Source of the DNA: a virus
Reading direction: 5' to 3' (one strand)
IMG/VR virus record: IMGVR_UViG_3300028840_006907
Coordinates: 96,001 to 160,000 of that record
DNA length: 64,000 nt
The notes under the pieces are model-generated. The model was not told where the DNA came from and searched no databases. It worked only from the letters and a program-made list of their open reading frames with translations. Position numbers and translations under genes: made by a program. Below, one piece after another: positions 6,335 to 62,451 of the stretch (the stretch's first letter is position 1; the number at the start of each line of letters is the position of its first letter).

Positions 6335-7456
6335 TTATTTCATTCCGTGTTCCCAGTCCTCGACCTCATAAAGAAATTTTGTACCAGCAAGCAACTTCCG
6401 GTTATAGGAAGTACTCTGGATAAATATATTGTATTTGCCAAGATCTGCTTCTTTAGGAGCAAAAGAGACTCTTCCTTCTGGAATGCCTACGATCTCTCTT
6501 GCTTCACTACCACTGAAAAAATCTCCGGTGATTTTATCCTGGAGAATGACTTCTTTATATTCCTGAATCAGAACACGTTTAATAAATTCGTAGAATCCTC
6601 GGCCCTTCTTAAATGTCATCCCATTGTCTAGGACAAATTGTTTAATTGGACAATCTTCCTCAACATCCATAACCTGAAACCGTCCTGGTGGTACTGCAGA
6701 TAGCTTTGTGGTAGCATAACGCTCTTTATATTCTTTCGGAAGTGTAATTTCAGCTCCAGTAAGGGCTGTAAGGTTTTTGACCATGGAACGAGAGAAGTGA
6801 CGCTTCTTGAATCTCTTATTTACAAATTCAACAACTTTCTCTTTCCCGGCCTGGGAATAACATATAGCTTTAATCAGATCTGGAACATCTGAAAACTGAT
6901 TTAGTTCAAGATGAAGTCCTTCAGTTTTTCTGGCTACTTCTTTATAAAAACTGGTAGCATGACGACGGCCTAGTGCCTGAACTGCATATACGTGAACGCC
7001 CATTTCCAGGAGACAGTCTAGTTCGTTTCTCCAATCAAGATGTTTGTAATTTTGAGCCTCATTCTGTTTATGGGGAACATCATCACCGATAAGAACTAAA
7101 ACTTTGTTTTTGCCTGCTGTCCAGTTAAAGGCTCTGGCAGAATGAAGAACTAATTCATAACATTCCGGTGCATCACCACCGTAAGTATTACCACAATGAC
7201 GAATAAATTTTATTAATGAACTTTGATCGGTTGAGAGTTCATGTGTTTTAATAACATAAGTATTTCCATCATCACAATAATCCCCATGTGCAATTAACCC
7301 CATGCGAAAATTTGGTATGTCTTTAAAGAGATTTTTTGTAAACTTTTCGACCTCTTTTCGAACCTGGGTCAGGCATGGGTACATCGAGCCAGTAGTGTCA
7401 AAAGACACTAACACTTCGACGATTCCTTCTTTTTCATCCATAATTTTTTCCTCCAA
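6335..7456 (-). CDS. von Willebrand factor A (vWA) domain protein
   Basis: 373 aa; MIDAS-like DTTGSM near N-terminus, LIGDDVPH. Confidence 0.65.
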   Translation of the reverse strand: MEEKIMDEKEGIVEVLVSFDTTGSMYPCLTQVRKEVEKFTKNLFKDIPNFRMGLIAHGDYCDDGNTYVIKTHELSTDQSSLIKFIRHCGNTYGGDAPECYELVLHSARAFNWTAGKNKVLVLIGDDVPHKQNEAQNYKHLDWRNELDCLLEMGVHVYAVQALGRRHATSFYKEVARKTEGLHLELNQFSDVPDLIKAICYSQAGKEKVVEFVNKRFKKRHFSRSMVKNLTALTGAEITLPKEYKERYATTKLSAVPPGRFQVMDVEEDCPIKQFVLDNGMTFKKGRGFYEFIKRVLIQEYKEVILQDKITGDFFSGSEAREIVGIPEGRVSFAPKEADLGKYNIFIQSTSYNRKLLAGTKFLYEVEDWEHGMK

Positions 7457-7495: not shown

Positions 7496-7852
7496 TTATG
7501 TTTTTTTGGCTGGAAAACCTAAATATGTAAGTTTCCAATCTAATTTTTGAGTCCATCCTTTTTCGATGGCTATATTTCTTGCTTCTTTTCTTGTCCTTGC
7601 TTGAATAACTTTAAAAAAATCTTTACGTGCAGGTACAGTAAAAAGAAAGAGAGGGGGATTTCCGTTAGGCATCTCCACTTTTGGAAGATGTTGATCTTTA
7701 GAGAAAATCCTCTCTATAGTTGTTACCCGATACCCACACTTTGGATTGGTACATAATCTCCTTCGCCTAGTGACATAAGGAGTTTTACAACGTGAATCTA
7801 TTACTTGAGTAGCACTCTCACATTGAGGGCATTTAAATTTTGTATGTGTCAT
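7496..7852 (-). CDS. NrdR-like zinc-ribbon protein (no ATP-cone)
   Basis: 118 aa; [15 protein letters not shown]...[21 protein letters not shown] resembles NrdR N-terminal zinc ribbon. Confidence 0.5.
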
Positions 7853-8726
7853 CTATACTTTGTTCCGCTATATTTAACAAATATTTTCCGTAATTATTCT
7901 TTTCCATTGGTAGAGCTAGGTTCATTAATTGCCCCTCATTTATATAACCATTTCGGTATGCTATCTCTTCAGGAGAAGAAATGATCAGTCCTTGTCTGGT
8001 TTGTATAGCTTCTACAAACTGGGAAGCTTGCATCATGGATTCATGTGTACCCGTATCAAGCCATGCTACTCCTCGGCCAAGAAGTTCTACTTTCAATAAT
8101 TCTTTTTCAAGATAAATCTGGTTAAGGCTAGTTATTTCAAGTTCTCCTCTGGGGGAGGGTTTTACCTGATGAGCGTATTCCACAACATTTTCATCATAGC
8201 AATATAAACCGGTAACAGCATAGTTTGATTTTGGATATTTGGGTTTCTCTTCAATACTAATGGCTCTTCCGTGTCCATTAAATTCTACAACTCCATATCT
8301 TTGGGGATCTGTGACTTGGTAACCGAAAACAGTAGCACCATGATTAAGTGTTACTGATTTTCGGAGTTTATCAATGAATTTATGACCCCAGAATATATTG
8401 TCTCCTAAAATGAGTGTCGTAGGTGAATCCATGGCAAAATCAGCCCCGACAAGAAAGGCTTGAGCCAGCCCTTCAGGTTTAGGTTGTATTACATAAGAGA
8501 AGGACAGCCCCAATTTATGGCCATCTCCGAGTAATCGTTTATACGACTCTATATCCTGGGGTGTTGATATTATGAGAATTTCTCTAATTCCTGCAAGCAT
8601 TAGTATTGATAGAGGATAATATATCATCGGCTTATCGTATATAGGAATTAACTGTTTGCTTATTCCTATAGTAGCTGGATAGAGCCTAGTCCCTGATCCT
8701 CCGGCAAGGATAATACCTTTTACCAT
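7833..8726 (-). CDS. rmlA: glucose-1-phosphate thymidylyltransferase
   Basis: 297 aa; [16 protein letters not shown], full-length RmlA-like. Confidence 0.9.
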
Positions 8727-8944
8727 TATTTTGTCTCTCCTTCAAAAGCTGCTTCTTTTTCATCACCTTTATTTTTATTAGCCATTTCGATGTATCTTTG
8801 TTCAATAAGATATGCTATCTCACCAGGTTCTAAATTTAATACAGCAAACCATCCTGGCATATCATTACGCATTAATCTTATTTGTACAACAGTAGGAGAG
8901 TGTTTTACATCACAGATGCTTATAACAGGCTTTTGTTTTGACAT
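8726..8944 (-). CDS. hypothetical protein (MPGWFA-motif paralog 1)
   Basis: 72 aa; shares MPGWFAxLxL motif with adjacent ORF. Confidence 0.45.
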
Positions 8945-8952
8945 AATTCCCC

Positions 8953-9177
8953 CTATTTTGATTTTAATTTTCTTGGTAATTTAGAAAACCCGCTACGGTC
9001 TTCAATTCCATTTTGAATTAAATTTTCATCAATTTTATATTTCTCTTCAAGTAATTGAGTAATTTCTTCTGCATCTAAATCCAATTCTGCAAACCATCCT
9101 GGCATATTTTTTTCTTTTAGTGTGATTCTGATAGCCCCCTCAACAGGTATCACATCTAATATGCTAAATGATCCCAT
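8953..9177 (-). CDS. hypothetical protein (MPGWFA-motif paralog 2)
   Basis: 74 aa; paralog of 8726-8944. Confidence 0.45.
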   Translation of the reverse strand: MGSFSILDVIPVEGAIRITLKEKNMPGWFAELDLDAEEITQLLEEKYKIDENLIQNGIEDRSGFSKLPRKLKSK

Positions 9178-9189
9178 CCTTTCTCCTTA

Positions 9190-9441
9190 TTAACATTTGG
9201 GTGGTTGGTTATAACTGGACACATTTGCAAGAGAACCAAATGCACTTTTAACTCCTTTAAAAGTTGATGTGATTATATTGTCTATTGTTGAAATAGTAAC
9301 TTTACATATAGTTACTATCCCTGTAACAATCACCCACAATGAAAATCCTGCCGTAACTAGAGTGAAACAACAAACAATTGTTTCTTGCACGTTGAGCCCA
9401 TCATTAATTAATTCCACTATTGCTTGCATTAATTCATTCAT
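9190..9441 (-). CDS. small membrane protein
   Basis: 83 aa with hydrophobic segments. Confidence 0.4.
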   Translation of the reverse strand: MNELMQAIVELINDGLNVQETIVCCFTLVTAGFSLWVIVTGIVTICKVTISTIDNIITSTFKGVKSAFGSLANVSSYNQPPKC

Positions 9442-9466
9442 ATCTGATTCCTATTTTATTTATTAT

Positions 9467-9931
9467 TTAATCTTCCCAAACAGTGTATTTATTAACACCT
9501 TGCCAATTAGTCTTATCATAAATGATCACAGGTCTTAAGAGATCCGGATCCAGAGCCATGGGAATCAACCATCTTAAATTTGGAATGATATTATTTGGCA
9601 AGTTGTTAATATCTGCTATAATTACTTTCTCATCTGTGGGATTATGTTCGGGTAAAATCAGTGCTGCTTTATTCAAAGCATAGAAAAAATAAACTCTCCA
9701 TCCTGAACCATTTATGATAGCAAAGTTTTTAAAATCCGCGATAGTATAAGAAGTTTCTTCTTTAAATTCCCTGATCATTGCCTGTTCAGGAGACTCCATT
9801 GGTTCAATATGACCTCCTATTCCGTTTACTTTATTTATCTGCCATTCTGGTCGATTTTTTTCTATCAGCATTACTTTATTAGTATGCCCTAAACAATCAT
9901 TAAAAAGAAATCCGACTACCATTTCAGTCAT
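9467..9931 (-). CDS. NUDIX hydrolase
   Basis: 154 aa; Nudix box GIGGHIEPMESPEQAMIREFKEETSYT. Confidence 0.75.
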   Translation of the reverse strand: MTEMVVGFLFNDCLGHTNKVMLIEKNRPEWQINKVNGIGGHIEPMESPEQAMIREFKEETSYTIADFKNFAIINGSGWRVYFFYALNKAALILPEHNPTDEKVIIADINNLPNNIIPNLRWLIPMALDPDLLRPVIIYDKTNWQGVNKYTVWED

Positions 9932-10317
9932 TCTTTTACTACCTCGATTGCGGGTTCACCTGGTTTATATGAATTACAAAGAGAATCGATAAATTCTTCT
10001 ATTGTACCGTACCTTTCTCGGGCACCTAATCCTTTATATTTTTCATTGTTCCAAAATTGGTCTGCCCGTTTCTCCATATACTCTCGATGTTTCTCAGGAG
10101 TAAGATCTGTAAAGATCCTGGAACCAACGGGAGGATCGTAATTAGGAAGACAACAATCTCCTTCCCAGTTTATATGAAGCATGTCTTTACCACATTTTAT
10201 ACATGTGATACCAAACGGGGTAACACCATCACGGCTGTTCCATATTGTTTCGGAATATCCACAATCCTTACACTGATATTTCATTAAACAGAAAGCTTCT
10301 TTGTGTAGATATGCCAT
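9928..10317 (-). CDS. zinc-ribbon protein
   Basis: 129 aa; CKDCG and CIKCG CxxC pairs. Confidence 0.5.
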   Translation of the reverse strand: MAYLHKEAFCLMKYQCKDCGYSETIWNSRDGVTPFGITCIKCGKDMLHINWEGDCCLPNYDPPVGSRIFTDLTPEKHREYMEKRADQFWNNEKYKGLGARERYGTIEEFIDSLCNSYKPGEPAIEVVKE

Positions 10318-10329
10318 AGATCCTCCTTG

Positions 10330-10542
10330 TTAATGTCCAAATACTTCATCTGTATCATCTTCAACAAATGCTATAGGATCAGCTACTCCGAATTCTCCCA
10401 TATCTTTTACGCACTCATGGTAAACACAAGTGGGAGTTAACGGCTTGTTTGCTTTAACATTTTCTTTGAATTCAATCTCATTTATACCAATTTCAAAAGT
10501 GCGCTTACAATTTCTGCATAAAAGTTTAATATAATATTTCAT
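10330..10542 (-). CDS. small Cys-rich protein
   Basis: 70 aa; CRNCK motif. Confidence 0.4.
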   Translation of the reverse strand: MKYYIKLLCRNCKRTFEIGINEIEFKENVKANKPLTPTCVYHECVKDMGEFGVADPIAFVEDDTDEVFGH

Positions 10543-10790
10543 TTGGTTTTGTCCTTTTTAAGTCTGTTTTTAACCCGGTCCTTTTCTTGAAAATGCAAAT
10601 CTGCTGTTGACATGTGTGGGCATCCATCATATGGATCAGTGCAGAATTTAATTTCATGCCGAAAACCAATATGTGATTTTATTAATATTATTTTTTTGCA
10701 CCATATGTTTTTGTCTTCATCAGTTATAAGACAACAGACTGGTAGGGTTTCAATACCTTTATTAGAATTTTCTTCGTAATTTACCATCAA
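10539..10790 (-). CDS. small Cys-rich protein
   Basis: 83 aa; 4-nt overlap coupling with neighbours. Confidence 0.4.
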   Translation of the reverse strand: MMVNYEENSNKGIETLPVCCLITDEDKNIWCKKIILIKSHIGFRHEIKFCTDPYDGCPHMSTADLHFQEKDRVKNRLKKDKTK

Positions 10791-10996
10791 TTTAAACCTA
10801 TATGATCAAATCGTTTCAAGGCACATTCTACACATTCATCATCACTTTTTATTTCTATTTTCGGATTTACATCACATCCGCAGTCTATGCATTTCTTTGG
10901 TTTAATTAATCTCGCTTTAATATTTAATTTTGTAAATAGTTGTATAAATTTTCCTATAAACTTTTCTTGTGTTTCTATTATAAAATAGTGGCTCAT
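10787..10996 (-). CDS. small zinc-ribbon protein
   Basis: 69 aa; CIDCGC...CVECA. Confidence 0.4.
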   Translation of the reverse strand: MSHYFIIETQEKFIGKFIQLFTKLNIKARLIKPKKCIDCGCDVNPKIEIKSDDECVECALKRFDHIGLN

Positions 10997-11047
10997 TTAT
11001 TGTTCTTGCCCTTTTGCAAGGTTCCTTTCTTTTTAGGTTTAAATACA

Positions 11048-12658
11048 TTAGTACAGAGGCTTTCCTGGTGCTGATCTCATACTCATAGGTCTTGGTATTT
11101 CTTCTTTCGCTGTTTCATCTTCTATAATAGCTATCTCTTCATTGAATTTATATGCTTTTAAATTCTTTTTAGACTGTTCGAAAAAGGTGATAGCTTTATC
11201 GATTTCATCTATAAGTGTTGATGTTTCCGGATTATCCATATTAATAAAGACCTTTTCAATAATACCGCATGTTAATTCTGCTTGTGTAAAATTATTGTTT
11301 AAGCATCGTGTTAGTATTTTTTCCAGATCTTTTTGTAGAGGAAATTCAATATCTTCGAATTTGGTATAGAAGCGTTTTAGTTTATTGAATTTGGACAGCA
11401 TCACGACATATGCCTCATCCCCGGTTCTGGGAGGTTTTATTTCAACTATTTCATCGAATCTCCCTGGTCGGTCAATGATAGTTTTATGGACTAATTCTGT
11501 GTCGTTAATGGTTATTAAAAGAACTATGTTAAGGTTATTATTTGTATCATCTATTTCATTTATAAAAGCTCCAACACGTTCGTTTTTTTCCTTAAATCCA
11601 AGAGCATCGAGATCTTCAATAATAACAAGAGCTGGTTGAATCATCCGAACAAATTGAAAGCACTTTTTTATTCGGTAAACTGTGCTGAATTCTTCAGGAC
11701 CTAGTTTGATAATAGTTATATCCGTAAGGATCTCTTCGAGTTTTTTTATGATAATAGATTTACCGGTACCCTGAAGCCCTATGAATCCGAAACCCCTTTT
11801 ACGATTATACTTTAAAATTTTCCTTATTACTTGTGCAAAAGCAGGAACATCATATTGGTTGATATTCTCTTCAACCTTCTGACGTGGTTTTGTTATAAGG
11901 CCATTTCTGAATTCCAATATATTGTCATGGGTATTAAAGGTGACAATGAAATCTTTTATTATGAGTTCTTCTAGATCGCGGATAATTTCTTCTGCTGAGT
12001 AAGATGAATTTAACGCATATTGTAAATCAAAGTAATATGAGGAAGATATCAACTTTGTGATCTTTAAATCGAACAATATTTTCTCATCATTAAATTCAAC
12101 CAGAATAAGGATCTCATTAAATTCGTGATCGAGTGAAACCTTTTCTAATGGTTTAAAAGAATGATCATAGTAACCTATTATTTTATATCCATTTGTTTTC
12201 GGGCTTTTAAATAGCCAGAATATGATGTCTTCATTTAAATATTTAGTCTCGTAATAACTGACATTATGGATATCCTCTATCTCTAAAAATTCTTTTAATT
12301 TCTTCTGCCTCTTATCATATTCAGAAAGTTCTTTTTGGTTTATTTTATCTATATATTTCTTGATTTTAATACCCATCTCCAGGCCATAGAGTGAAGCCGG
12401 TAAGGTATAGCGAAATAAGTTGAAGGTGTTTTTAAAAGTGAGTTTTCGATTACCATTGGTTAAGAATTTAAATCCTTTATCTAAATCTAAGATAACAGAT
12501 AAAGCTTTTGTGATATCTGCTGGACTTCCGTAATTTTCACCAATAAAATTGAATAAATGATATAGTTTGTGGTTTCTGGGAACCAGATTCATCAGTGATA
12601 TATCTGTTTTGGGATTTTCATCTCCTGCTGTCGTTACTGGCATATTTACTCGTGGCAT
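11048..12658 (-). CDS. AAA+ family ATPase
   Basis: 536 aa; Walker A GLQGTGKS, Walker B VIIEDLD. Confidence 0.7.
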   Translation of the reverse strand: MPRVNMPVTTAGDENPKTDISLMNLVPRNHKLYHLFNFIGENYGSPADITKALSVILDLDKGFKFLTNGNRKLTFKNTFNLFRYTLPASLYGLEMGIKIKKYIDKINQKELSEYDKRQKKLKEFLEIEDIHNVSYYETKYLNEDIIFWLFKSPKTNGYKIIGYYDHSFKPLEKVSLDHEFNEILILVEFNDEKILFDLKITKLISSSYYFDLQYALNSSYSAEEIIRDLEELIIKDFIVTFNTHDNILEFRNGLITKPRQKVEENINQYDVPAFAQVIRKILKYNRKRGFGFIGLQGTGKSIIIKKLEEILTDITIIKLGPEEFSTVYRIKKCFQFVRMIQPALVIIEDLDALGFKEKNERVGAFINEIDDTNNNLNIVLLITINDTELVHKTIIDRPGRFDEIVEIKPPRTGDEAYVVMLSKFNKLKRFYTKFEDIEFPLQKDLEKILTRCLNNNFTQAELTCGIIEKVFINMDNPETSTLIDEIDKAITFFEQSKKNLKAYKFNEEIAIIEDETAKEEIPRPMSMRSAPGKPLY

Positions 12659-12927
12659 TATTCTTTATCTTCTTCCTCTATTAATTTGTAACCCATACTA
12701 TGAGGCTCTTGTGGTTTAAAATATTTGTCATAAGTATCTGTGTCATCAATGTGAGCTATAATATAATCCCCTTTTATTTCTTTTACTTTCCCTATTATTT
12801 TATCTCCAAATTTAATTGGAGACCCTATAGGAGGTGCCCCTAAATTTGGGTTAATAGGAAATTTTATAAATTCCCCTTTTTCTTTTCGTTTTAAGAATTT
12901 TAAGAATATTTTTGGAAGAGCCATCAT
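12658..12927 (-). CDS. hypothetical protein
   Basis: 89 aa ORF. Confidence 0.4.
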   Translation of the reverse strand: MMALPKIFLKFLKRKEKGEFIKFPINPNLGAPPIGSPIKFGDKIIGKVKEIKGDYIIAHIDDTDTYDKYFKPQEPHSMGYKLIEEEDKE

Positions 12928-13202
12928 AATCCTAGTGCTTCTTTTTCTTTTTTGGTTAATTTTTTTAAAGCTCTTTTTCTGTAAATAACTTTGGGATCTG
13001 TTTTATCCAAATTATAGACTTTTCCTTCAACAATGACACGACCGCCACTGATCTCTTCTCCACTGGCTTTTAAAGGTCTGTAATCAACCCATTCTTCTTT
13101 CAAATCCCCACATTTTAATTCACAAGTTTCTTTATGGATAAATGCCTCTTTCATAAGATTCGACCCACCCATTGTACTTCTTTTCATTAAATAGACTTCC
13201 AT
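12924..13202 (-). CDS. hypothetical protein
   Basis: 92 aa ORF. Confidence 0.4.
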   Translation of the reverse strand: MEVYLMKRSTMGGSNLMKEAFIHKETCELKCGDLKEEWVDYRPLKASGEEISGGRVIVEGKVYNLDKTDPKVIYRKRALKKLTKKEKEALGL

Positions 13203-13612
13203 TATTTATTCCTTTTAATCAATGTCAAAAGAGTCAGCACTTCCACATTTGGGACACCTAGCTTTTCCATGGTTGTGGTCTCTTTTCCAATTCTCATAAA
13301 ACCACCATTTTTGAATCCAAAACTTTCGAAAGATCCTTTTAAATTGCTGTAACGCTAACCACCAGGAGTGCGGGTCAGATCTTTTCCAACCATTTTCTTC
13401 AGCATAATAGTCATCAAACCTAATTCGTGTTGGATACCAGTAACCTTTTTTAGTGAATACATATGAAAGGAAACAGGATATTGGATTATACCCCCATTTT
13501 ATTTTTATGATTGGGAAAGTATAATAACCATATTTTCCAAATTTAAAGTCCCAGAAATCATCCTGACTCCAATCACAGTTATGACAGTGTAAATAAGCGA
13601 TATTTAACTCCT

Positions 13613-14407
13613 TTATATATAGGTAGTGATTGTCTTTTCTACTGCCATAGGCAAAGTCTCAAAATTGGCATCTAATCTAATACAGGGAATTATACTAACA
13701 ATTTCTTCCATATTAAAATGCGATACTTCAAGTTCTCGTTTATAACCATCACTGTAATGATCGTAACATTTTTTATATTTATTAACAAAGTCTTGCCTGA
13801 CAACGAGATTTCTGTTTTCTTCTACAATAAGCCTCCCTTTGGTACCCTTGGTTCTCTGTACTACATTGTAGTATCTTTTCGCATATTTCGGAATTTTAAA
13901 ACGCCATAGATCATCAGGAGAAGCCCCACTGAATTTTACTGCTAATTTTCTTTTTTTCGATGGAGGTAAAAAACCGTCAATTAAAATCAATGCCTGTATG
14001 TTAGGTTTTTTATGATATGGTTTGAAAAAAGACAAGGCGGTAAGGGTATCCCCAACTCCGAAGCTCTTGGCAACAATGATATGATTAACATTATTTCCAT
14101 AATATTGCATAGTTTGTTGTAAAGCCTCAAAGAGACATTCTTCTGAGTCAGATCCAATAGTACCTCGACCAAAGATGAATACATAATTATCTTTGGTCTC
14201 AGGGGCCTTATTGCTCGTCCTGGCTTGTTCAACCCCGGTTAAGACTTCATAAAACAGGGAAGAATTGGTTTTCTCTATTTCTTGAACGTGAGGTAGCCAG
14301 ATAGTATTATAACCATCTAGTGCGTTCATATCAAAAGGATGTTCAGTGTCCTTTTGATGGAACCGGTTCATCCCAAGCATTACTGTTATAATAGTATATG
14401 AATCCAT
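13613..14407 (-). CDS. hypothetical protein
   Basis: 264 aa ORF divergent from rmlB; no motif recognised. Confidence 0.5.
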   Translation of the reverse strand: MDSYTIITVMLGMNRFHQKDTEHPFDMNALDGYNTIWLPHVQEIEKTNSSLFYEVLTGVEQARTSNKAPETKDNYVFIFGRGTIGSDSEECLFEALQQTMQYYGNNVNHIIVAKSFGVGDTLTALSFFKPYHKKPNIQALILIDGFLPPSKKRKLAVKFSGASPDDLWRFKIPKYAKRYYNVVQRTKGTKGRLIVEENRNLVVRQDFVNKYKKCYDHYSDGYKRELEVSHFNMEEIVSIIPCIRLDANFETLPMAVEKTITTYI

Positions 14408-14654
14408 CCATTCTCCTAATTGTTGAAAAAGCTACATATATTTTACGACATAAGGAGACGCTTTCATTAAGTAGTTTTTTTGAAAATCTAAAATAGTTTT
14501 ATTCGGGAAAAATTTCTGTGGTTAAATATTTGATATTAAAGTATGATTTTAAAGGAATTATCTAAGTTAAATCATTTTTTCAACTCAACAACGTAATATT
14601 AATATACCTTCATAAATATAGAACACTCTTTATCACATTTTTTTAGGATGGATT

Positions 14655-15758
14655 ATGAAATTGTTTGTTACCGGTGGAGCAGGATTTATAGGAGCTAATT
14701 TCGTAAATTATTGGATTCAGAAACACCCCAATGACTATGTTACTGTTTTTGATAAATTAACGTATGCAGGGAATCTTAGTAGTTTATCAAAAGTAATGAA
14801 ACATCCTCATTTTAAATTCATTCGTGGGGATATTTTAGATTATAATTTATTATGCAAATCATTGAAAGAAGTAAGTACAGTTGTTCATTTCGCTGCGGAA
14901 TCCCATGTGGATCGGTCTCTTTCGGGATATGAAGCAGAGATGTTGTTTAATCGAACTAATTTGGATGGTACTATCACGCTTCTTCATGCTTGTTCTTTAA
15001 TGGATGTTGAGAGATTTCATCATGTCTCTACAGATGAGGTATATGGTGATTTAGGATATGATGATAAGCCATTTAATGAGAAATCACCCTATAATCCCCA
15101 TAACCCTTATGCTATAAGTAAAGCTGCGGCTGATTTTGCGGTTAGAGGATTTTCCCGTAGTCATGGGTTGGTATATACTATAAGTAATTGTACCAATAAT
15201 TATGGTAAATACCAAACCCCAGAAAAAATTATCCCTCGATCTATATGTCTTTTATTGCAGGATAAAAAGATTGAACTCTATACCGATGAACTAGGAAATC
15301 CAGGGACGAATATTCGAGATTGGATTTTTGTAGAAGATCATTGTAGGGCAATTGAGAAGATCCTTTTATATGGGAAAAATGGAGAAACTTATTGTATTGG
15401 TGGTAATTGTGAGCTAAAAAATATCGAATTGGTTAAAAAGATTTTAGCAATTATGTCAAAATTATTGGGTAAAACCTTTTTTGTTGAAAATAATGTCAAA
15501 CTAGTTAAAGACAGACCCGGGCATGATTTAAGATATGCTATGGATATTGAGAAGATTTCTTCTGAGTTGGACTGGATCCCTAAGCATTCATTTAATGAGG
15601 CATTTGAGTTAACCGTAAAGTGGTATTTATCAGAAGAAGGACAACAGTGGTTAAAATCAGTTGAAAAAACTTCTGGGGAAGTGAGAAAAGATCAGAGTAA
15701 AAAACATAAGAAGAGTTTTGATCTAAAGAATAAATTCAGCCATATTTTCAAACAGTAG
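14655..15758 (+). CDS. rmlB: dTDP-glucose 4,6-dehydratase
   Basis: 367 aa; Rossmann GGAGFIGANFV, full-length RmlB-like. Confidence 0.9.
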   Translation: MKLFVTGGAGFIGANFVNYWIQKHPNDYVTVFDKLTYAGNLSSLSKVMKHPHFKFIRGDILDYNLLCKSLKEVSTVVHFAAESHVDRSLSGYEAEMLFNRTNLDGTITLLHACSLMDVERFHHVSTDEVYGDLGYDDKPFNEKSPYNPHNPYAISKAAADFAVRGFSRSHGLVYTISNCTNNYGKYQTPEKIIPRSICLLLQDKKIELYTDELGNPGTNIRDWIFVEDHCRAIEKILLYGKNGETYCIGGNCELKNIELVKKILAIMSKLLGKTFFVENNVKLVKDRPGHDLRYAMDIEKISSELDWIPKHSFNEAFELTVKWYLSEEGQQWLKSVEKTSGEVRKDQSKKHKKSFDLKNKFSHIFKQ

Positions 15759-15760
15759 AA

Positions 15761-15797
15761 GTTGGCCTCTCCTATAAGAAGAGGCCAACCATTCTTT
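15761..15797 (+). terminator. rho-independent terminator
   Basis: Stem GTTGGCCTCT/AGAGGCCAAC directly after rmlB stop. Confidence 0.6.
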
Positions 15798-15872
15798 AAG
15801 TGGTATACACAACTTAAAGAGCGGTCCTTCATGTTAACGTAGGTAATTTTCTCTGTAAGTTGTTGATTTATA

Positions 15873-16282
15873 TGGAGGTGAGGAGAGTTGAACTCCTGTC
15901 CGCGAAGGTATCTTGAGTAAACCTCTACATGTTTAGTCTATGGTTTAAATCTTATTCATAATCACGTTCACAGACAAACTTAATTAAGAACCAGTCTCTA
16001 GTCTCATTCATTGGTCAAGACTCCTCAATGAACCAGAACCCGTTTGGCTATCCGGAATTAACAGGGTTCAGTTAAAACCGGATTTGTCGTTTTTTGTTTA
16101 AACGACGGCTTCTTCTGCTTGATGAATAGCAGCAAGGTTAAGTGCTGAAAACATCGCACAGAAGTTAACTGTATTAGTTTTTTCAGTTATTATTGAAATC
16201 GGCTTTTTTACGAGGCCAACCGATTAACCTCGACATGCAGTTTACATTTCAACTCATCACGTCGAAAACCAAGTACACCCCC
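15873..16282 (-). ncRNA. ssrA: tmRNA (transfer-messenger RNA, ssrA-like)
   Basis: Minus strand 5' GGGGGTGTACTTGGTTTTCGACG..., internal GGTTGGCCTCGTAAAAAAGCCG matching conserved tmRNA pseudoknot/resume region, 3' tRNA-like GGAGTTCAACTCTCCTCACCTCCA. Confidence 0.8.
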
Positions 16283-20523: not shown

Positions 20524-21405
20524 TTATTTGTCTATATAGTGATAGCCCATTTTCTCCCACTGCTCTCTGAATTGAATAGCTTCATATTCTATCCCTAATA
20601 AATTTATTAGTATCTTTTCACTCTTTTTTGTTTTTTGTTGAATAGCTTGTTTAGTGATTTTATAAGAGTTAGCTAATTCTTCAAAAGTCCATTTACCTTT
20701 ATTATCCAAATTATACCGATGGATAATAATATTTTGTTGTTGTTCATTTAAATAGTTTTTTATGACTCTTCGAATGATAACATCTATTTCCGAATTCTCA
20801 TATTCTTTTCCGGTTAAGTAATGTTCATCAAGATCAGGTATATTATTTATTAGAAGGATGTCTTCAATTTCATTTCCATTACCTATGGGTTCATAGAGAG
20901 ATTCAACTTTTAATAATTTAAATCTCAATTTTTCCTTTTCTGTATATCTAATGTGAGGCATGTATTTTGTAATTATATTCTTTCTCGCTATTGGTGGTAT
21001 CATACTCATTATAAAAGTGGTCTCTTTATAAGCTGGGTTATAGCATTTACTTGAATGGGTGAGAATAGTAAGATTGATTTCATTTATAATATCCTGATAT
21101 TCTACTCCACCTTGTAAAGAGGTATATATCTTCTTTGCTATATTCACGACTATTCCTTCGTGTTTGGCTGGATCTATACGGTATATCTGTCGTATTAAAA
21201 TTTCTTTTCCTTTTATGGATGGTGAAGGTCTTTCTTTAAAGAGGCGGTATTCAGCTATTTTATTTTTTATTTGTTTAATTCCCGCTTTTTTGGCTGTCTT
21301 TTCATCGGTACAATTTGTTACTACTGCTGTGAATACTCTTTTGGAACCACTGAGATTTAATTTATCAGCTTTACCTTGTAATTTTACCTTAACTTCAAAT
21401 AGCAT
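20524..21405 (-). CDS. sigma-70-family-like transcription factor (divergent)
   Basis: 293 aa; C-terminal region-4-like HTH (FEELANSYKITKQAIQQ). Confidence 0.45.
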   Translation of the reverse strand: MLFEVKVKLQGKADKLNLSGSKRVFTAVVTNCTDEKTAKKAGIKQIKNKIAEYRLFKERPSPSIKGKEILIRQIYRIDPAKHEGIVVNIAKKIYTSLQGGVEYQDIINEINLTILTHSSKCYNPAYKETTFIMSMIPPIARKNIITKYMPHIRYTEKEKLRFKLLKVESLYEPIGNGNEIEDILLINNIPDLDEHYLTGKEYENSEIDVIIRRVIKNYLNEQQQNIIIHRYNLDNKGKWTFEELANSYKITKQAIQQKTKKSEKILINLLGIEYEAIQFREQWEKMGYHYIDK

Positions 21406-46401: not shown

Positions 46402-47571
46402 TTATCCAAAATTAGACTTTCGGGTCAGAGGTATCTTTTTTGCAGTATCCGCAAATAGTTTTAACCCTTTCCATGAATCAATGTGGTAGGAAGTAATATA
46501 AGGTGCCTTAGGAGGTGGGCAACCACAATGCCCGTTAACTCTAACTGATCTTTTACCCTCTTTATTGGCATACATCTCCTTAGCATCTTTTAAAGGCATA
46601 TTCCCATCGACCATCCAGTAAGTCCATGCTCTTTCAAAGGTGAAACCCGGGAGTTCTCCAGAGATAGAGAAAGGAACTTCTCCGTCACCTTTTTTAGATA
46701 CAATATCAATACCGGCTAGATCAAGTTCAAGTCTGATGTAATGATCACAAGCTACCTCTCCAGCAAGATTCCCCATTGTATAACTTTCTCCATTATTGGC
46801 TAGATGCGTTTCGCATTTCTTTTTGATTTTTTTCTGATAACATTCTTCGTGGAAATATTTCCATTTTTCATAAAGAACTTCATCATTTTCTTCAATGACA
46901 TAATTTTCATCTATATTTTTTCTGCCATTTTTGTTTTTCTCATAACCATATTCTTTATCAATAGTCAGGTCAATGAGCCCCCTATTGAAAATAGTATGAT
47001 GAAATATATAGACAGTATTTTTGTCTGTGTTTCGAAGCTCTTTTTCAATTTCTGTTAAAGTTTTCCCGACGTATTTGGAGTTTATCTCAAATTGGTTAGA
47101 GTACCGTAATCTTTTGGTTTTATGGCAATACTCTACTTCCCATCCTTTATTACAGTGGGAACATTTTACATAAGCGGGAGGTAAATCATTGCCCATTGAG
47201 AATGAGATACTTATAGGATACGGCCTTTTGTTTTTTGCCCAATCAAAATCTTCTGCATCCATCTCTTCTCGGGTTAATATATTAGGGATATTTTCTTTAC
47301 TCCATCTTTCAATAAAATCCCAAAATTCTGTCTTTGTAAAAACTTTTCCTACAGGAAAATTGAAAATTTTCTCTACCGGAATAAAACCTGTCGCAGTACC
47401 TAAATTACCACACGTATCGAGATAATATCGACCTAAGACATAATATTCGTATAGTCTTTCATCACGTTTGTAACCTGCTTCGTGTCTTTCATTGATCATT
47501 TCCCAAAATGTGTTGTAAGATTTAAGTGACTTTTCGATTCCTTTAATTGTGTTATAGTCTTGTTTTTTCAT
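46402..47571 (-). CDS. hypothetical protein
   Basis: 389 aa ORF, no motif recognised. Confidence 0.5.
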   Translation of the reverse strand: MKKQDYNTIKGIEKSLKSYNTFWEMINERHEAGYKRDERLYEYYVLGRYYLDTCGNLGTATGFIPVEKIFNFPVGKVFTKTEFWDFIERWSKENIPNILTREEMDAEDFDWAKNKRPYPISISFSMGNDLPPAYVKCSHCNKGWEVEYCHKTKRLRYSNQFEINSKYVGKTLTEIEKELRNTDKNTVYIFHHTIFNRGLIDLTIDKEYGYEKNKNGRKNIDENYVIEENDEVLYEKWKYFHEECYQKKIKKKCETHLANNGESYTMGNLAGEVACDHYIRLELDLAGIDIVSKKGDGEVPFSISGELPGFTFERAWTYWMVDGNMPLKDAKEMYANKEGKRSVRVNGHCGCPPPKAPYITSYHIDSWKGLKLFADTAKKIPLTRKSNFG

Positions 47572-48599
47572 TTTACCACATGTTTAGAAGTGATTGTTTC
47601 TGCGAATTCTGGCCCCCTATCATAGTCATCAATCCATATGTTATCACAGTGCCGATTTCCTTTTTTCTCACTGCCGTACCATTGTGTCCTCCAATGTGCC
47701 TCAACTCTTATCTTATGATCCAGTTTCCATTTTCCGACACCTCCAGCTTGTTTGATACGAGTTATATCGTTATTCTTATCCTTTATATTTGAACCAACAA
47801 TAATAAATCTTTTGTTGGTAGCTTTTTCTTTCCTTTGTTCCAGTTTTCTTTTCTTGGTTTTATTTTTAATATTTTTTAATCTTGCATCAAAATCTAGTGG
47901 ATCATGGTTTTTTAAATCAGGTTTTTTGCTTGTGATATATAAAAGAGTGTTAAATACAAATTTTGCGAATTCTTCTAAATGATCAACATTTTTATATAAA
48001 TCATATTTATCTACTTCTTCCTTTTTTCTTTTTGTCTCATTTTCAATATAAATCTTTAATTGATCCTGAATTTTTCCAGGTTGCATTTCTATGTGGAAAT
48101 AAAAGGTGGTATCATTAAATGGTATGTCTGGTGTAGGTTTTAATAATGAACATGCCATTACTCTAATATGCTTTTCAGTATTGAAATCTCGAAGATAAAC
48201 GTAAAAACCATTTACAGGATGTTTACTTCCATCTATATCATTTATAGAAAAAAGACCTGGATCTATCTGTATAAAAATTTCTCTAAACGGGGATCTTAAG
48301 AAATAAGCATCAGTATTACAATTTGTTTGGGCTAGTCTTGCTGAAAGTTCTGGTGTTATATAGTATATCTGATCAGCATTATTTTTCATTTGATACATAT
48401 GAAAATATGTATTGTAAAAATGACTTATTCTTGCTGGTGAATCAAATTCAGTAAAAATAGAAGAAGTAGCATTACAAAATTGTTTGAATGTAGGATCAAA
48501 ACCAATATCGAGCATATTTTGTACTAGTATAGTTGGGGCTACTGTCTCTAGATGTTTAATAGCCAGTTCATAATGAGTTTTTGTGAAATACTTCTCCAT
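47568..48599 (-). CDS. hypothetical protein
   Basis: 343 aa ORF. Confidence 0.5.
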   Translation of the reverse strand: MEKYFTKTHYELAIKHLETVAPTILVQNMLDIGFDPTFKQFCNATSSIFTEFDSPARISHFYNTYFHMYQMKNNADQIYYITPELSARLAQTNCNTDAYFLRSPFREIFIQIDPGLFSINDIDGSKHPVNGFYVYLRDFNTEKHIRVMACSLLKPTPDIPFNDTTFYFHIEMQPGKIQDQLKIYIENETKRKKEEVDKYDLYKNVDHLEEFAKFVFNTLLYITSKKPDLKNHDPLDFDARLKNIKNKTKKRKLEQRKEKATNKRFIIVGSNIKDKNNDITRIKQAGGVGKWKLDHKIRVEAHWRTQWYGSEKKGNRHCDNIWIDDYDRGPEFAETITSKHVVK

Positions 48600-51360: not shown

Positions 51361-51632
51361 TGGAGTGTAGCTCAGTGGCAGAGCGGGTGGCTGTCTTGGT
51401 TGGCAGCTCTTATAGGAAACTGTAAGATGAAAACTCGGTGAATTCAGGGAAACCTAAGTCTTAAACAGATATGGCAATCCTGAGCGAAGCCTTGAGAAAG
51501 GAACGTGCAGAGACTTATAGCGCCGAGCACCTAAGGTGAAAACTATGGTGATGAGATAGTCCAGGCCCTTGGGAAATCAGGGGAATTACTGTAACCACTT
51601 GGTCGGGGGTTCAAATCCCTCCACTCCAGCCA
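51361..51632 (+). tRNA. tRNA-Asn (anticodon GTT) interrupted by a group I intron
   Basis: Exon 1 51361-51394 (TGGAGTG...GGTGG-CTGT), exon 2 51592-51632 (TAA-CCACT...CACTCCAGCCA); spliced loop CTGTTAA; U1:A72 as in bacterial tRNA-Asn. Confidence 0.7.
51395..51591 (+). ncRNA. group I intron (~197 nt) in tRNA-Asn anticodon loop
   Basis: 5' exon ends in U; IGS GGCAG pairs with exon CUGU; R-like GCAGAGACTTATAGCG and S-like GAGATAGTCC elements; terminal G before exon 2. Confidence 0.65.
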
Positions 51633-51683: not shown

Positions 51684-51884
51684 ATGAGTAAAGATGAGAA
51701 ACCTGATTATTCGAAAGATTTCGATACATGTCCTTGGTGTAATAAAATACCAAAAGTATCGAAACATTTCAGATATGATGAATGGCAACTGATCCATCGT
51801 TGTGATAAATTACTTACTGTAATTAGTATGGATTGGACTGAATTAGATAGTCTTAAAAATCGATGGAATCGACCTAAGAAATGA
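51684..51884 (+). CDS. hypothetical protein
   Basis: 66 aa ORF; CPWCNK. Confidence 0.4.
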   Translation: MSKDEKPDYSKDFDTCPWCNKIPKVSKHFRYDEWQLIHRCDKLLTVISMDWTELDSLKNRWNRPKK

Positions 51885-52156
51885 CAGAATGTACTATATG
51901 TGAAAGAGAAACTCCTGAGAAATATGTGGAGAAACATCACTTGACTCCTTGTAGCCGAGGAGGAAAGGATAAGGAGAAAACACTTACTTGTATTGATTGC
52001 GGAGATCAGGTACATCGATTATTTACGAATAAAGAATTGGAGAGAGACTATTATACACTCGAAAAATTATTAGCTCATCCTAAAATCCAGAAATGGAAGA
52101 AATGGGTTAAGAATAAGAGATTCGGGATATGTATGAAACGAAAAAAGAAGAGATAA
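51881..52156 (+). CDS. small HNH-type endonuclease-like protein
   Basis: 91 aa; CTICE...EKHHLTPCSRGG...CIDCGDQVH. Confidence 0.5.
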   Translation: MTECTICERETPEKYVEKHHLTPCSRGGKDKEKTLTCIDCGDQVHRLFTNKELERDYYTLEKLLAHPKIQKWKKWVKNKRFGICMKRKKKR

Positions 52157-53115: not shown

Positions 53116-53189
53116 GCGCCTGAGGCTCTGAGGTGAGCAACTTGGACTCTAAATCCAAGTTTTTCAGGGTTCGACTCCCTACAGGCGCA
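53116..53189 (+). tRNA. suppressor tRNA (anticodon CTA, reads UAG)
   Basis: Hand fold: acceptor GCGCCTG/CAGGCGC, anticodon stem TTGGA/TCCAA, loop CTCTAAA (U33, CUA, A37), T-loop TTCGACT. Confidence 0.65.
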
Positions 53190-55726: not shown

Positions 55727-56029
55727 TTATAATATTTCTTTCACTTTGTTTTTTAATGTATCACATTTAGGATCAAATTCTGGCTCTTTTCCATCGTTCC
55801 ATGGTGACTTAATCCAGAAAAAGCATGAGTCAACACGACCCACTCTGATGTCTCCATTCATGTAATCCCTTTGTCCTTTAAAATAAGCCCTCTCAATGGC
55901 TTTAAAGTCGGTAGTGGCCTCTATACTAATGTATTGTATTTTATTGCTCTCAGGGGCAAATAACCGCCATGAGATAAGGAATAGTAAGTAAGCTCCTATT
56001 AAAATTATAAAACTATTAATTTTAAACAT
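55727..56029 (-). CDS. membrane-anchored hypothetical protein
   Basis: 100 aa; N-terminal hydrophobic helix. Confidence 0.4.
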   Translation of the reverse strand: MFKINSFIILIGAYLLFLISWRLFAPESNKIQYISIEATTDFKAIERAYFKGQRDYMNGDIRVGRVDSCFFWIKSPWNDGKEPEFDPKCDTLKNKVKEIL

Positions 56030-56897
56030 ATAAATTGTTCTCTTGTATAATACCAGCTATTAATGTGAGAAAAGGAGACTCCCTAAGATACTTTTCCCGA
56101 TCCTCCTTTAATTCTTTTCTGATATCTGTAGAGGATATCTTTGGTATTTTATTACCAGCATCAAAAAACTTATGTGGTTCTTTCATATACCAATTCACAT
56201 TTGGATCGCGCTTTTCTCCTTGTCTAGATACTACAATGAATGGTATCAATTTTTCAAGGTGTTCATAGTTAACCCATTTATCAAATGTATTGGCATTATC
56301 AAGTCCAATGACATAATTGAATCGGTATTCGTTTTTGGCAAAATCCTCTTCCATAAATTTATTAAGGAAATAATATGTCTCTCCAGCTAGTTCGTGAACA
56401 ATTTCATAATCGCATACTTTCATTCTCTTATCTACCTGTACATATTCTCGACACATGGCTAGCCGTAGTGATGCAGGAGCCATTTCTTTTCCATATAAAT
56501 GTCTGTAGCAGGGGATGTACCAAACTTCATCGAATAACCCTGCTTCATCGAGTAAGAATTTTCCTATAGCAAGATGGCCAGGATGGATGGGATCAAAAGC
56601 ACCCCCGATGAGCGCAACTGATACTTTCCTGCCAAGTTTACGGTATAAAGATCGGCTATTAATTTTGGTGATGTTCATTTCAACCAATTCATTAAAATCA
56701 TAACCGGCTTCATTAATCCATTGTATCAGTGTACCAAGTAGATCGCTCGTTTCATCTTTTAATCCCGTCATGGTCCTGGCTCTTGTCAATTCAAATGCTT
56801 CTTTAAGGATATCATTCAATCTGATATCAGTAGGAGTATTTCCAAAAGCTTCTGAATACGTTTTATTGATATTATTTAATAAATCTGATAAATTCAT
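56022..56897 (-). CDS. nadD: nicotinate-nucleotide adenylyltransferase (NadD/NMNAT-like) with N-terminal MazG-like extension
   Basis: 291 aa; GGAFDPIHPGHL (HxGH nucleotidyltransferase) and ISSTDIR; N-terminal ~90 aa EAFELTRARTMTGLKDETSDLLGTLIQWINEAG resembles MazG/HisE-type NTP-PPase. Confidence 0.75.
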   Translation of the reverse strand: MNLSDLLNNINKTYSEAFGNTPTDIRLNDILKEAFELTRARTMTGLKDETSDLLGTLIQWINEAGYDFNELVEMNITKINSRSLYRKLGRKVSVALIGGAFDPIHPGHLAIGKFLLDEAGLFDEVWYIPCYRHLYGKEMAPASLRLAMCREYVQVDKRMKVCDYEIVHELAGETYYFLNKFMEEDFAKNEYRFNYVIGLDNANTFDKWVNYEHLEKLIPFIVVSRQGEKRDPNVNWYMKEPHKFFDAGNKIPKISSTDIRKELKEDREKYLRESPFLTLIAGIIQENNLYV

Positions 56898-57078
56898 TTT
56901 TCAATTTCTTTTTAGGTAAATTTTTTATTATACAATCAATACAAATATCTTTACTTTTCCACTGCCCATTTTCTATAGTTCTTAATACCACCCTATAACT
57001 TTTATCTCTAATAAAGAGCCTGCTATCGTCAATATCCATTTGTTTTTTGCATATATCACATATTGTAATTTTAGCCAT
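56872..57078 (-). CDS. small zinc-ribbon protein
   Basis: 68 aa; CDICKK...CIDCI. Confidence 0.4.
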   Translation of the reverse strand: MAKITICDICKKQMDIDDSRLFIRDKSYRVVLRTIENGQWKSKDICIDCIIKNLPKKKLKNEFIRFIK

Positions 57079-57095
57079 TTTGTTTTAAATTACAT

Positions 57096-57887
57096 TTATA
57101 TATCTAAATGGCAAATACGAGGCATTTCCATTTTATGAGCATTCTTTTCATGTCGTTCTAGATATAATTCAAGAACTTTCATTTTTCTTTTTTCTATTGT
57201 TAACATAGATTTCATCGCTTCAAGTCCTTTGATAGTTTTTAAACCACCTAATTTTTTACAAAAATCCATAGCCCATTCCAATTCAGAATATGTAGCTCCA
57301 ATCTGATCTTCATCAGTTCTGCCATCTTCCCATAATCCATCAGTAGGTTTTGCTGTTAAAATATCTGAGTTCACTCCAAGATAGGCTCCCATACCATATA
57401 CCTCAGATTTGACTAGCTCTCCTATTGGACTTATATCAACACCACCATCACCGAATTTTGTAAAGAAACCAATTCCGAAATCTTCAACCATATTCCCAGT
57501 ACCAACAACATAATAATTATGGGTATTTGCGATAGCATAAAGAGCTACCATTCGAAGACGGGATCTGGTATTAACCATGGCAAATTCATTGTAATAATTA
57601 CTATGATTAAAATTATTAAAGACAACTGAAAGATCTTCCGTATGACTGGTAACATTGGTATAGTCTTTTTTTAATTTTTCAACATGTGCTTCTGCTCTGG
57701 GAAGAATATCTTGATTTATTGGCATATGGGCACATATAACAGGTTTATAAGTTCTGGCACATAAATTTGATACAACTGCTGAGTCAATTCCACCTGAAAC
57801 TCCAACTACACAGCCATCTACATGGGATTCCTTCATGTCTCTAATAATCCAATTTACAATATGATCTGAGACTTTTTTATAGTCCAA
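57096..57887 (-). CDS. nadE: NAD+ synthetase (NH3-dependent type)
   Basis: 263 aa; PP-loop GVSGGIDSAV. Confidence 0.8.
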   Translation of the reverse strand: MDYKKVSDHIVNWIIRDMKESHVDGCVVGVSGGIDSAVVSNLCARTYKPVICAHMPINQDILPRAEAHVEKLKKDYTNVTSHTEDLSVVFNNFNHSNYYNEFAMVNTRSRLRMVALYAIANTHNYYVVGTGNMVEDFGIGFFTKFGDGGVDISPIGELVKSEVYGMGAYLGVNSDILTAKPTDGLWEDGRTDEDQIGATYSELEWAMDFCKKLGGLKTIKGLEAMKSMLTIEKRKMKVLELYLERHEKNAHKMEMPRICHLDI

Positions 57888-57899
57888 ATTTATCCTCCT

Positions 57900-59624: not shown

Positions 59625-60487
59625 TAATATTCCTCATTTAAATAAATAGTAGCAGTACCAACGTCATCATAATGATGCCAATTATGTTTTTTAACTTTCT
59701 TACCAAAAAAGATCATGCGCTTTTTTACAAATTCACCGGTAGTGTTTTTAAATCCAATAAATTCGGGTATTGTAATATCTAATCCTATATCTTTTTTATA
59801 ACTATCTCTGTAGGTTGATATACCATCTGTACATATTGTAACAGATAAGAGTTTATCCTTCATAATATTGGAAATTTCTTCGGAATAGATTGTATCAAAA
59901 GGTAATGAAGATTCAAGAGGATTTTCTAGCCCCTTTTCTCCTGACAAAGTAATAATTTCCCGAAAGCATTGAGGATTATCTTCACCTTTAATAGCACAAT
60001 TTTTTAAATAGACTGTTCTATCACTTATTAGATAAAATGGGGCATTTAAGGAATAATCTATTTTCATTATTAGCTGATAATTACCGCCATCTTCTTTTCT
60101 ATAATTAGCTGTAATGACACCATCACCCCATGCAAATACCAATACTCTTGAAGACAATCTTATAGTTATTAATAATGTGGCTTCCAAAGCCTTAGGAGTA
60201 ATGGGGTATATCTTTCTTATTTCATCAGCTCTTTTGTGAATGCCGTTTCCGAGATAAAATGAGAGTTCTTTCAGATTTAATCGTTCGAATAATCCAGTTT
60301 GGATACAAAATTCAATATTATATTTAGCAACATGACATAATATTTGAGCACCTACTTCAGAATGATCCGCAGAAGAACATCCATCTGCAACGATGCCATA
60401 CTCAATTCCTTTAAAAGAGCCACTTAATGCATAGTCTTGACAGACTAAATGAGTGCTTCCTTTTTCATAATATGAGTCACAGCTCAC
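59624..60487 (-). CDS. PP2C-family (PPM) protein phosphatase-like
   Basis: 287 aa; GIVADGCSS, FAWGDGV, ICTDGIS motifs. Confidence 0.6.
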   Translation of the reverse strand: MSCDSYYEKGSTHLVCQDYALSGSFKGIEYGIVADGCSSADHSEVGAQILCHVAKYNIEFCIQTGLFERLNLKELSFYLGNGIHKRADEIRKIYPITPKALEATLLITIRLSSRVLVFAWGDGVITANYRKEDGGNYQLIMKIDYSLNAPFYLISDRTVYLKNCAIKGEDNPQCFREIITLSGEKGLENPLESSLPFDTIYSEEISNIMKDKLLSVTICTDGISTYRDSYKKDIGLDITIPEFIGFKNTTGEFVKKRMIFFGKKVKKHNWHHYDDVGTATIYLNEEY

Positions 60488-60546
60488 AATTACCTCCTTT
60501 TAGTAAGCACAGAAGGCTCCATTACAGAGCCTTCCTGCAAAAATTC

Positions 60547-61314: not shown

Positions 61315-61326
61315 AAGTTATCCTTT

Positions 61327-62154: not shown

Positions 62155-62201
62155 ATCTTATCCTCCTTTAAGATTTAGTATATGTTATCTGTTATTTATA
62201 A

Positions 62202-62444: not shown

Positions 62445-62451
62445 AATATAT

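Follow-up and report, generated by a model that had tools for sequence, protein, structure and literature searches.

The first two dTDP-sugar enzymes of a huge phage and an adjacent zinc-ribbon protein of the NrdR type

The 64,000-nucleotide stretch of viral DNA analyzed here (the window; positions 96,001 to 160,000 of IMG/VR record IMGVR_UViG_3300028840_006907) encodes RmlA and RmlB, the enzymes for the first two steps of deoxythymidine diphosphate (dTDP)-sugar synthesis, together with a small zinc-ribbon protein whose gene overlaps the end of rmlA. We consider it probable (roughly 60%) that rmlA and rmlB are dispensable, host-derived auxiliary metabolic genes, that the host completes the remaining dTDP-sugar steps, and that the ribbon protein is a separate DNA-binding regulator. 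The window is huge-phage DNA: the source contig has 388,651 bp, and proteins identical to those of the window also occur on contigs of up to 469,617 bp (NCBI, ENA, and Logan). Record coordinates below refer to contig JGI 3300017963 Ga0180437_10000019, on which the window is the reverse complement of ~280,443-344,442, and the examined stretch is the window with a 10-kb flank on each side (~83 kb of this contig). The two sugar genes are as follows.

7833-8726, minus strand: rmlA, glucose-1-phosphate thymidylyltransferase, 297 amino acids (TIGR01207, 475.9 bits; cut-off 360.65)

14655-15758, plus strand: rmlB for the 4,6-dehydratase of dTDP-glucose, 367 amino acids (TIGR01181, 393.6 bits; cut-off 365.1)

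The open reading frame (ORF) at 7833-8726 is confidently predicted to be a bona fide RmlA, the enzyme that makes dTDP-glucose from dTTP and glucose-1-phosphate. Its score lies above the NCBIfam equivalog cut-off, with residues 3-287 covering positions 1-285 of the 286 in the TIGR01207 model, and it also matches PF00483 (Pfam, E = 2.7e-69). An end-to-end alignment without gaps is obtained with the RmlA structure 5ids in the PDB (E = 1.3e-120), and the motifs GGSGTRL (residues 9-15), LGDNIF (107-112), EEKP (159-162), and WLDTGT (222-227) are kept. Identity to any viral or solved homologue is at most ~61-63%. A scan of IMG/VR with RmlA returned nothing above 61% identity, and no locus that it returned shares any of the tested window ORFs besides RmlA and RmlB.

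RmlB dehydrates dTDP-glucose to dTDP-4-keto-6-deoxy-D-glucose, the shared branch-point intermediate of dTDP-sugar pathways, and the ORF at 14655-15758 is likewise predicted to be a bona fide member of this family. It matches PF16363 (Pfam, E = 8.9e-68) and aligns end to end with dTDP-glucose 4,6-dehydratases in the PDB, of which 2hun is the best match (E = 5.9e-85). The motifs GGAGFIG (residues 7-13, the GxxGxxG of NAD-binding short-chain dehydrogenases/reductases), STDEVYG (125-131, with the catalytic TDE), YAISK (152-156, YxxxK), and RPGHDLRY (287-294) are kept. A first-pass annotation made from the letters alone had placed RmlA and RmlB at these positions, and both calls stand, since the equivalog cut-offs are exceeded and the motifs are intact. 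The two phage enzymes are active-looking and would jointly yield dTDP-4-keto-6-deoxyglucose.

The same annotation had stated that only these first two steps are encoded, and this extends beyond the window: neither RmlC nor RmlD was found in it or in the 10 kb on either side. When 113 window ORFs were scanned with Pfam, the families with E-values below ~1e-8 included no PF00908, DegT aminotransferase, or glycosyltransferase, and PF04321 and PF01370 matched a single ORF, RmlB itself. A tblastn search with RmlC and RmlD of phage ukendt gave nothing except the paralogy of RmlB. Custom hidden Markov models built from 33 RmlC and 26 RmlD sequences were searched against all 965 six-frame ORFs of the window and both flanks. 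No RmlC was found (best E-value 1.9), and the sole RmlD match is RmlB (E = 1e-11), through paralogy. Gene tables with precomputed Pfam assignments, which cover record positions 270,819-353,968, hold no sugar-modifying enzyme, and PHROGs searches with the larger unclassified ORFs gave no further pathway gene. Aminotransferases and glycosyltransferases, which the first-pass annotation had named as the genes to look for, are missing from the 83 kb by Pfam and PHROGs, and no hydroxymethylase, DNA kinase, or other base-modification gene was found there. A gene for ribonucleotide reductase (RNR) was not found there either.

Relatives of three neighboring genes occur in other phages, where the fate of the rml genes can be compared.

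7496-7852, minus strand: 118-amino-acid protein with an NrdR-type zinc ribbon (residues 7-50, PF22811) and a lineage-specific C-terminal domain (residues 60-118)

6335-7441, minus strand (ORF 6335-7456): vWA-like protein, 368 amino acids from the ATG at 7441 (PF00092, 23.6 bits against a gathering cut-off, GA, of 23.8)

13613-14407, minus strand: 264-amino-acid protein of a huge-phage-conserved family, divergent from rmlB

In sequence comparisons, the rml genes behave as accessory genes: members of this phage group acquire, relocate, and lose them. Three observations are the basis for this view. First, rmlA and rmlB are on opposite strands with 5.9 kb between them and hence do not form a single operon; the region from 6.3 to 16.3 kb of the window is chiefly a run of minus-strand genes. 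Second, two related huge phages (L092, 397,812 bp, and L093, 208,085 bp) share the 264-residue protein at 44-58% identity and have no rmlA or rmlB within 10 kb of its homologue. Third, rmlA has decayed in a close relative. Two contigs (L083 and L084) with a ribbon protein 64% identical to that of the window carry an intact rmlA, 82% identical, that abuts the ribbon gene. In three independent assemblies (L089-L091), rmlA is a frameshift-split remnant of residues 152-297 from which the catalytic N-terminal half is gone, and the genes for the ribbon protein (53-54%), the vWA-like protein (82%), and a coiled-coil protein (56%) are kept intact. Gain, movement, and loss on such a short evolutionary scale would fit optional boosters of host metabolism better than an essential modification of DNA or virions. 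RmlB is conserved at 74-75% in relatives. A metagenome scan found one close relative of it at 74% among the matches listed (L177), in which rmlB is directly beside a homologue of an amidase gene, without the transfer-messenger RNA (tmRNA) gene and two ORFs (to 17756) that separate the two genes in the window. Just upstream of the rmlA remnant in one of the three assemblies (L089, 185-3166) there is an IS607-like pair of genes for a serine recombinase and TnpB/OrfB_IS605.

If the rml genes are indeed such accessory genes, then the phage would add capacity, during infection, for the entry steps that dTDP-sugar pathways share. Enzymes from outside the 83 kb would perform the later steps, most simply host RmlC and RmlD or others that act on 4-keto sugars for cell-envelope glycans, and supply by the host seems likelier than supply by distant phage genes. 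The rml genes would be optional and would come and go among related phages. The ribbon protein would regulate phage transcription by binding DNA and would be tied to sugar metabolism by its position only.

Borrowed metabolic genes of this kind are already known in phages, and the present pair is real but ordinary; it adds one more huge-phage lineage to the phages with dTDP-sugar entry enzymes. RmlA and RmlB are listed among the auxiliary metabolic genes of virulent coliphages (PMC6969025), and the wastewater huge phage 3-SewaC has a complete four-gene dTDP-L-rhamnose cassette (PMC10747093). Among 80 IMG/VR loci with an RmlA relative, all four genes (rmlA to rmlD) are present in 24, rmlA and rmlB only in 14, and rmlA only in 26, within the flanks available. 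Having rmlA and rmlB without the other two is thus not very unusual among viral contigs. Like the phAPEC8-like coliphages (e.g., phage ukendt) and 3-SewaC, the phage studied here encodes an RmlA and an RmlB of host-like character within a large genome of lytic type, amid nucleotide-metabolism and accessory genes. Unlike the rmlBACD genes of the phAPEC8-like phages, which adjoin nucleotide-metabolism genes, and unlike the 3-SewaC cassette, it has rmlA and rmlB unlinked and on opposite strands, with no rmlC or rmlD in 83 kb.

Closer counterparts in content are two huge-phage contigs from the set with rmlA and rmlB only, IMG/VR 3300007339_000098 (L059, 315 kb) and 3300045988_177154 (L061, 325 kb), which also hold the first two steps with no rmlC or rmlD within 10 kb. 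Unlike in the window, their rmlA and rmlB are adjacent and co-oriented and follow a FemAB-family gene. Their proteins are 55% (RmlA) and 45% (RmlB) identical to those of the window, and neither contig has a match for the tested window proteins.

The protein encoded at 7496-7852 is, by its sequence and modeled fold, most likely a DNA-binding phage transcription regulator without a visible nucleotide sensor. It scores above the cut-offs of PF22811 (Zn_ribbon_NrdR, 35.1 bits against a GA of 27.2) and Ogr_Delta (26.6 against 26.3), it has the motifs CPQC, DSR, RRRR, Cx4C, and TTxE, and PHROG 603, 'transcriptional regulator', matches it with an E-value of 5.8e-6. Pfam gives no match to the ATP-cone (PF03477). 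The match to the NrdR model TIGR00244 covers residues 7-49 only and, at 23.2 bits, is below the cut-off of 124.65. The start at ATG 7852 appears right because the N-terminus M-x-x-T-K-F-K/R-C-P is conserved in homologues. This ATG is inside the last codons of rmlA (stop at 7833-7835), and the resulting 20-nucleotide overlap is with the rmlA 3' end, not with the rmlA start where it had originally been placed.

The DNA-contacting residues of NrdR are retained in this protein. In S. coelicolor NrdR, D15 and R17 contact bases and R26-29 and R37 contact the backbone (PMC9110341); these residues align with D19, R21, R29-32, and R42 of the phage ribbon. A first AlphaFold2 model from three sequences (predicted local distance difference test, pLDDT, 63) was replaced by a model from 92 sequences in which ribbon residues 10-50 have pLDDT values of 94-98. 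Its best fold match in the PDB is E. coli NrdR (9fvr_D; 48 columns, root-mean-square deviation 1.6 A, 40% identity). An NrdR-like ribbon lacking the ATP-cone had been proposed from the letters alone, and the domain score, the contact residues, and the structural match all agree with it. The C-terminal 60 residues are predicted to adopt a beta-beta-alpha-beta arrangement (pLDDT 59-84) that is shared with three full-length relatives only. This part of the model has no structural match, and no nucleotide-binding fold is recognizable in it.

A HMMER search of 1.84 billion representatives returned 91 matches at E <= 1e-3, nearly all of them 45-190 amino acids long and aligned over residues 7-55 only; full-length relatives number just three among the billions of proteins searched. 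The ribbon protein, P0002 and P0003, and 89 of the 91 matches make up a set of 92 proteins, in which PF22811 is found in 91, Ogr_Delta in 72, and the ATP-cone in only 5. The protein is therefore one of many cone-less NrdR-type ribbons, a large family in which PHROGs labels some members as transcriptional regulators. This family is the sole element of the locus of some continuing interest, and it may have a role in phages.

The suggestion that the ribbon protein might be a nucleotide-responsive regulator is not supported by this analysis. NrdR senses nucleotides via its ATP-cone (PMC9110341), and a nucleotide-responsive role is without basis because this domain is absent; nor does the C-terminus have a recognizable nucleotide-binding fold. 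NrdR boxes are not enriched in the window, where a single match with three mismatches compares with 1.65 expected by chance. The protein is like NrdR (E. coli 9fvr and S. coelicolor 7p37) in having a ribbon of the same fold with CxxC, DSR, RRRR, and TTxE. It differs in being shorter (118 versus 140-220 amino acids), in its C-terminal domain, in a second Cys pair that is Cx4C rather than CxxC, and in the missing cone, hence in having no known nucleotide sensing or cone-mediated tetramerization. Its setting also appears to differ from that of bacterial NrdR, with no box above chance in the window and no RNR gene in 83 kb. It resembles the P2-like Ogr/Delta late-gene activators (PF04606) as a small phage zinc protein with four Cys residues that just passes the Pfam cut-off; unlike these, it scores higher with the NrdR ribbon model and has neither P2-type late promoters nor the corresponding genome context.

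Comparison with relatives indicates that the steady partner of the ribbon gene is the vWA-like gene and not rmlA. The vWA-like gene is 82-88% identical in L083 and L089-L091 and always comes directly after the ribbon gene. Since L089-L091 keep the ribbon and vWA-like genes while rmlA has decayed, no functional tie between the ribbon protein and RmlA is supported. The most likely start of the vWA-like gene is the ATG at 7441, which follows a ribosome-binding site of sequence GGAGG. Its product has DTTGS at residues 15-19, where the DxSxS of a metal-ion-dependent adhesion site is expected, and has no sequence match in the PDB.

Several observations weigh against the view that rmlA and rmlB are dispensable boosters of a host pathway and that the ribbon protein is separate from them. 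About 305 kb of the genome lies outside the examined 83 kb, and downstream enzymes or transferases may be there. An intact rmlA directly upstream of the ribbon gene, both here and in the two relatives with 64% identity, could mean that the two are co-expressed with functional sense. Finally, RmlB matches from cellular organisms reach 44-63% identity at best and are scattered over many phyla, so that they point to no particular host that could be credited with rmlC and rmlD. The RmlB clade comprises ~60 clusters at 56-75% identity. Two relatives at 62-63% are on cellular contigs where rmlB stands alone, one of them like those of the candidate phyla radiation (CPR), with RecR, tRNA synthetases, and PMT-type glycosyltransferases, and the other Gram-negative, with PFOR and an RND efflux pump. 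The best matches in species genomes (44-51%) come from Gammaproteobacteria, CPR, Acidobacteriota, archaea, and others. Inference of the host from RmlB was therefore rejected as giving no usable signal.

A complete dTDP-L-rhamnose or other dTDP-sugar pathway could be split, with rmlC and rmlD or their equivalents somewhere in the other ~305 kb. As rmlA and rmlB are themselves unlinked, more scattered genes are plausible, and full cassettes do occur in other phages (the 24 of 80 IMG/VR loci, a 208-kb contig (L053), the phAPEC8 group, and 3-SewaC). However, the 83 kb yielded nothing more of the pathway, and in phage loci that have rmlC and rmlD (the phAPEC8-like coliphages and the IMG/VR loci) both are directly beside rmlA and rmlB. 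We regard a split pathway as unlikely, though worth keeping in mind.

It is improbable that dTDP-glucose or dTDP-4-keto-6-deoxyglucose is a donor for glycosylating phage DNA, by hypermodification of thymidine or hydroxymethyl bases, or virion proteins, as the first-pass annotation had suggested. A gene for a glucose-1-phosphate thymidylyltransferase-like protein in phage Carin-5, beside glycosyltransferases and a DNA polymerase, has been proposed to serve T-hypermodification (PMC12686479). In the 83 kb examined here, by contrast, no gene that could make use of the donor was found, whether for a glycosyltransferase, a hydroxymethylase, a DNA kinase, or the like. The pseudogene remnant in a close relative would make rmlA dispensable, and an essential genome-protection pathway fits poorly because L092 and L093 have no rml genes in their corresponding regions.

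The cone-less ribbon might instead mimic or antagonize host NrdR, either occupying NrdR boxes or pairing with host ribbons regardless of nucleotides and thereby reprogramming RNR expression. More generally, the short cone-less ribbons could be nucleotide-blind phage mimics or dominant-negative partners of host NrdR. If so, RNR expression in infected cells would no longer follow the dATP/ATP ratio. NrdR ribbons pair with each other (PMC9110341), the DNA-contact residues of S. coelicolor NrdR have their counterparts in the phage protein, and the family is large and consists mostly of short proteins. The chance-level count of boxes in the window and the lack of an RNR gene in the 83 kb argue against such a role, as do the Cx4C in place of the second CxxC and the score with Ogr/Delta, a family of phage transcription activators. 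Identity of the ribbon protein among relatives is also only 53-64% where flanking genes are 82-88% identical. We consider mimicry of NrdR a long shot, both for this protein and for the family.

RmlA is very improbable as mainly a dTTP sink or nucleotide-pool modifier acting with the nearby NUDIX hydrolase, since an intact and conserved RmlB shows that the sugar product matters and the window has no sign of thymidine replacement. In favor of such a role, RmlA uses dTTP, there is a MutT-like NUDIX gene 0.7 kb upstream of it, and many window genes belong to nucleotide and nicotinamide adenine dinucleotide (NAD) metabolism.

The following features also lie around the two sugar genes.

8726-8944 and 8953-9177, minus strand: tandem pair of small ORFs, paralogous to each other (72 and 74 amino acids), directly upstream of rmlA

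9467-9931, minus strand: MutT-like NUDIX hydrolase, 154 amino acids (PF00293, 35.9 bits against a GA of 21.1)

11048-12658, minus strand: AAA+ ATPase, 536 amino acids (PF00004, E = 1.4e-10)

15760-15790, between the converging rmlB and tmRNA genes: hairpin with a 14-bp stem (terminator scan)

15870-16282, minus strand: tmRNA gene, a neighbor of rmlB separate from the sugar genes (Rfam RF00023, 159.9 bits against a GA of 47; also called by ARAGORN)

The first-pass annotation had listed NUDIX and vWA genes as neighbors. The NUDIX assignment holds, with the Nudix box intact (residues 40-59) and MutT proteins as the best PDB matches (E ~5e-4), and the vWA assignment is marginal, given its score just below GA, its DTTGS sequence, and the lack of a PDB match. 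The two small ORFs upstream of rmlA share an NMPGWFA motif and have no family match in Pfam or PHROGs; both are conserved in L083, and each cross-matches the homologue of the other there.

The 264-residue protein was considered as a missing sugar enzyme and rejected, because it has no family match and its homologues elsewhere among huge phages have no rml gene beside them. Its family has 45 homologues, none with a Pfam match, on contigs of up to 397,812 bp. On the other side of rmlB, the hairpin at 15760-15790 is likely a two-way terminator. The phage-encoded tmRNA has an unusually long tag peptide according to ARAGORN (EKTNTVNFCAMFSALNLAAIHQAEEAVV*).

The wider window contains 34 tRNA genes, the tmRNA gene, a group I intron, NAD-salvage genes, HNH endonucleases, and many ORFans, and a megablast search of the region against 50,697 GenBank phage records gave no match. 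Recoding of a stop codon was considered as a cause of miscalled ORFs and rejected, as reading TAG or TGA as sense leaves the long ORFs unlengthened, and the standard code was kept. TAG terminates 13 of the 95 likely window ORFs. One tRNA gene (53116-53189, plus strand) has the anticodon CTA, that of an amber suppressor, and is labeled 'Pyl' by ARAGORN. Any recoding of TAG would concern other parts of the genome, because TAG ends these ORFs and its reading as sense gives no longer ones.

Several further genes were observed elsewhere. A set for NAD+ salvage and synthesis occupies 56022-63624 on the minus strand, comprising a NAPRTase (62452-63624), an NAD synthase (57096-57887), and, as an NMNAT candidate, a cytidylyltransferase-like protein (56022-56897). 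Interspersed with these genes are those for a Ser/Thr protein kinase (57900-59624) and for a PP2C phosphatase (59624-60487). Behind the group I intron at 51385-51583 (plus strand; Rfam, 92.8 bits) come small ORFs at 51684-52156 (plus strand), one of which has a weak HNH_5 match, and together they look like a homing-endonuclease intron. A 293-residue ORF at 20524-21405 (minus strand) matches PHROG 351, 'RNA polymerase sigma factor' (E = 4.1e-8), and may encode a sigma-like phage factor. A 343-residue protein (47568-48599, minus strand) has a precomputed Pfam match to the anti-CRISPR-associated family AcrVA2-like (PF26125). Just past the right end of the window (L088, 2676-8825), genes for YqiJ-like, flotillin/Band_7 (621 amino acids), and PspA/IM30 proteins and a K+ channel with an RCK domain form what may be a phage cluster for membrane stress or remodeling.

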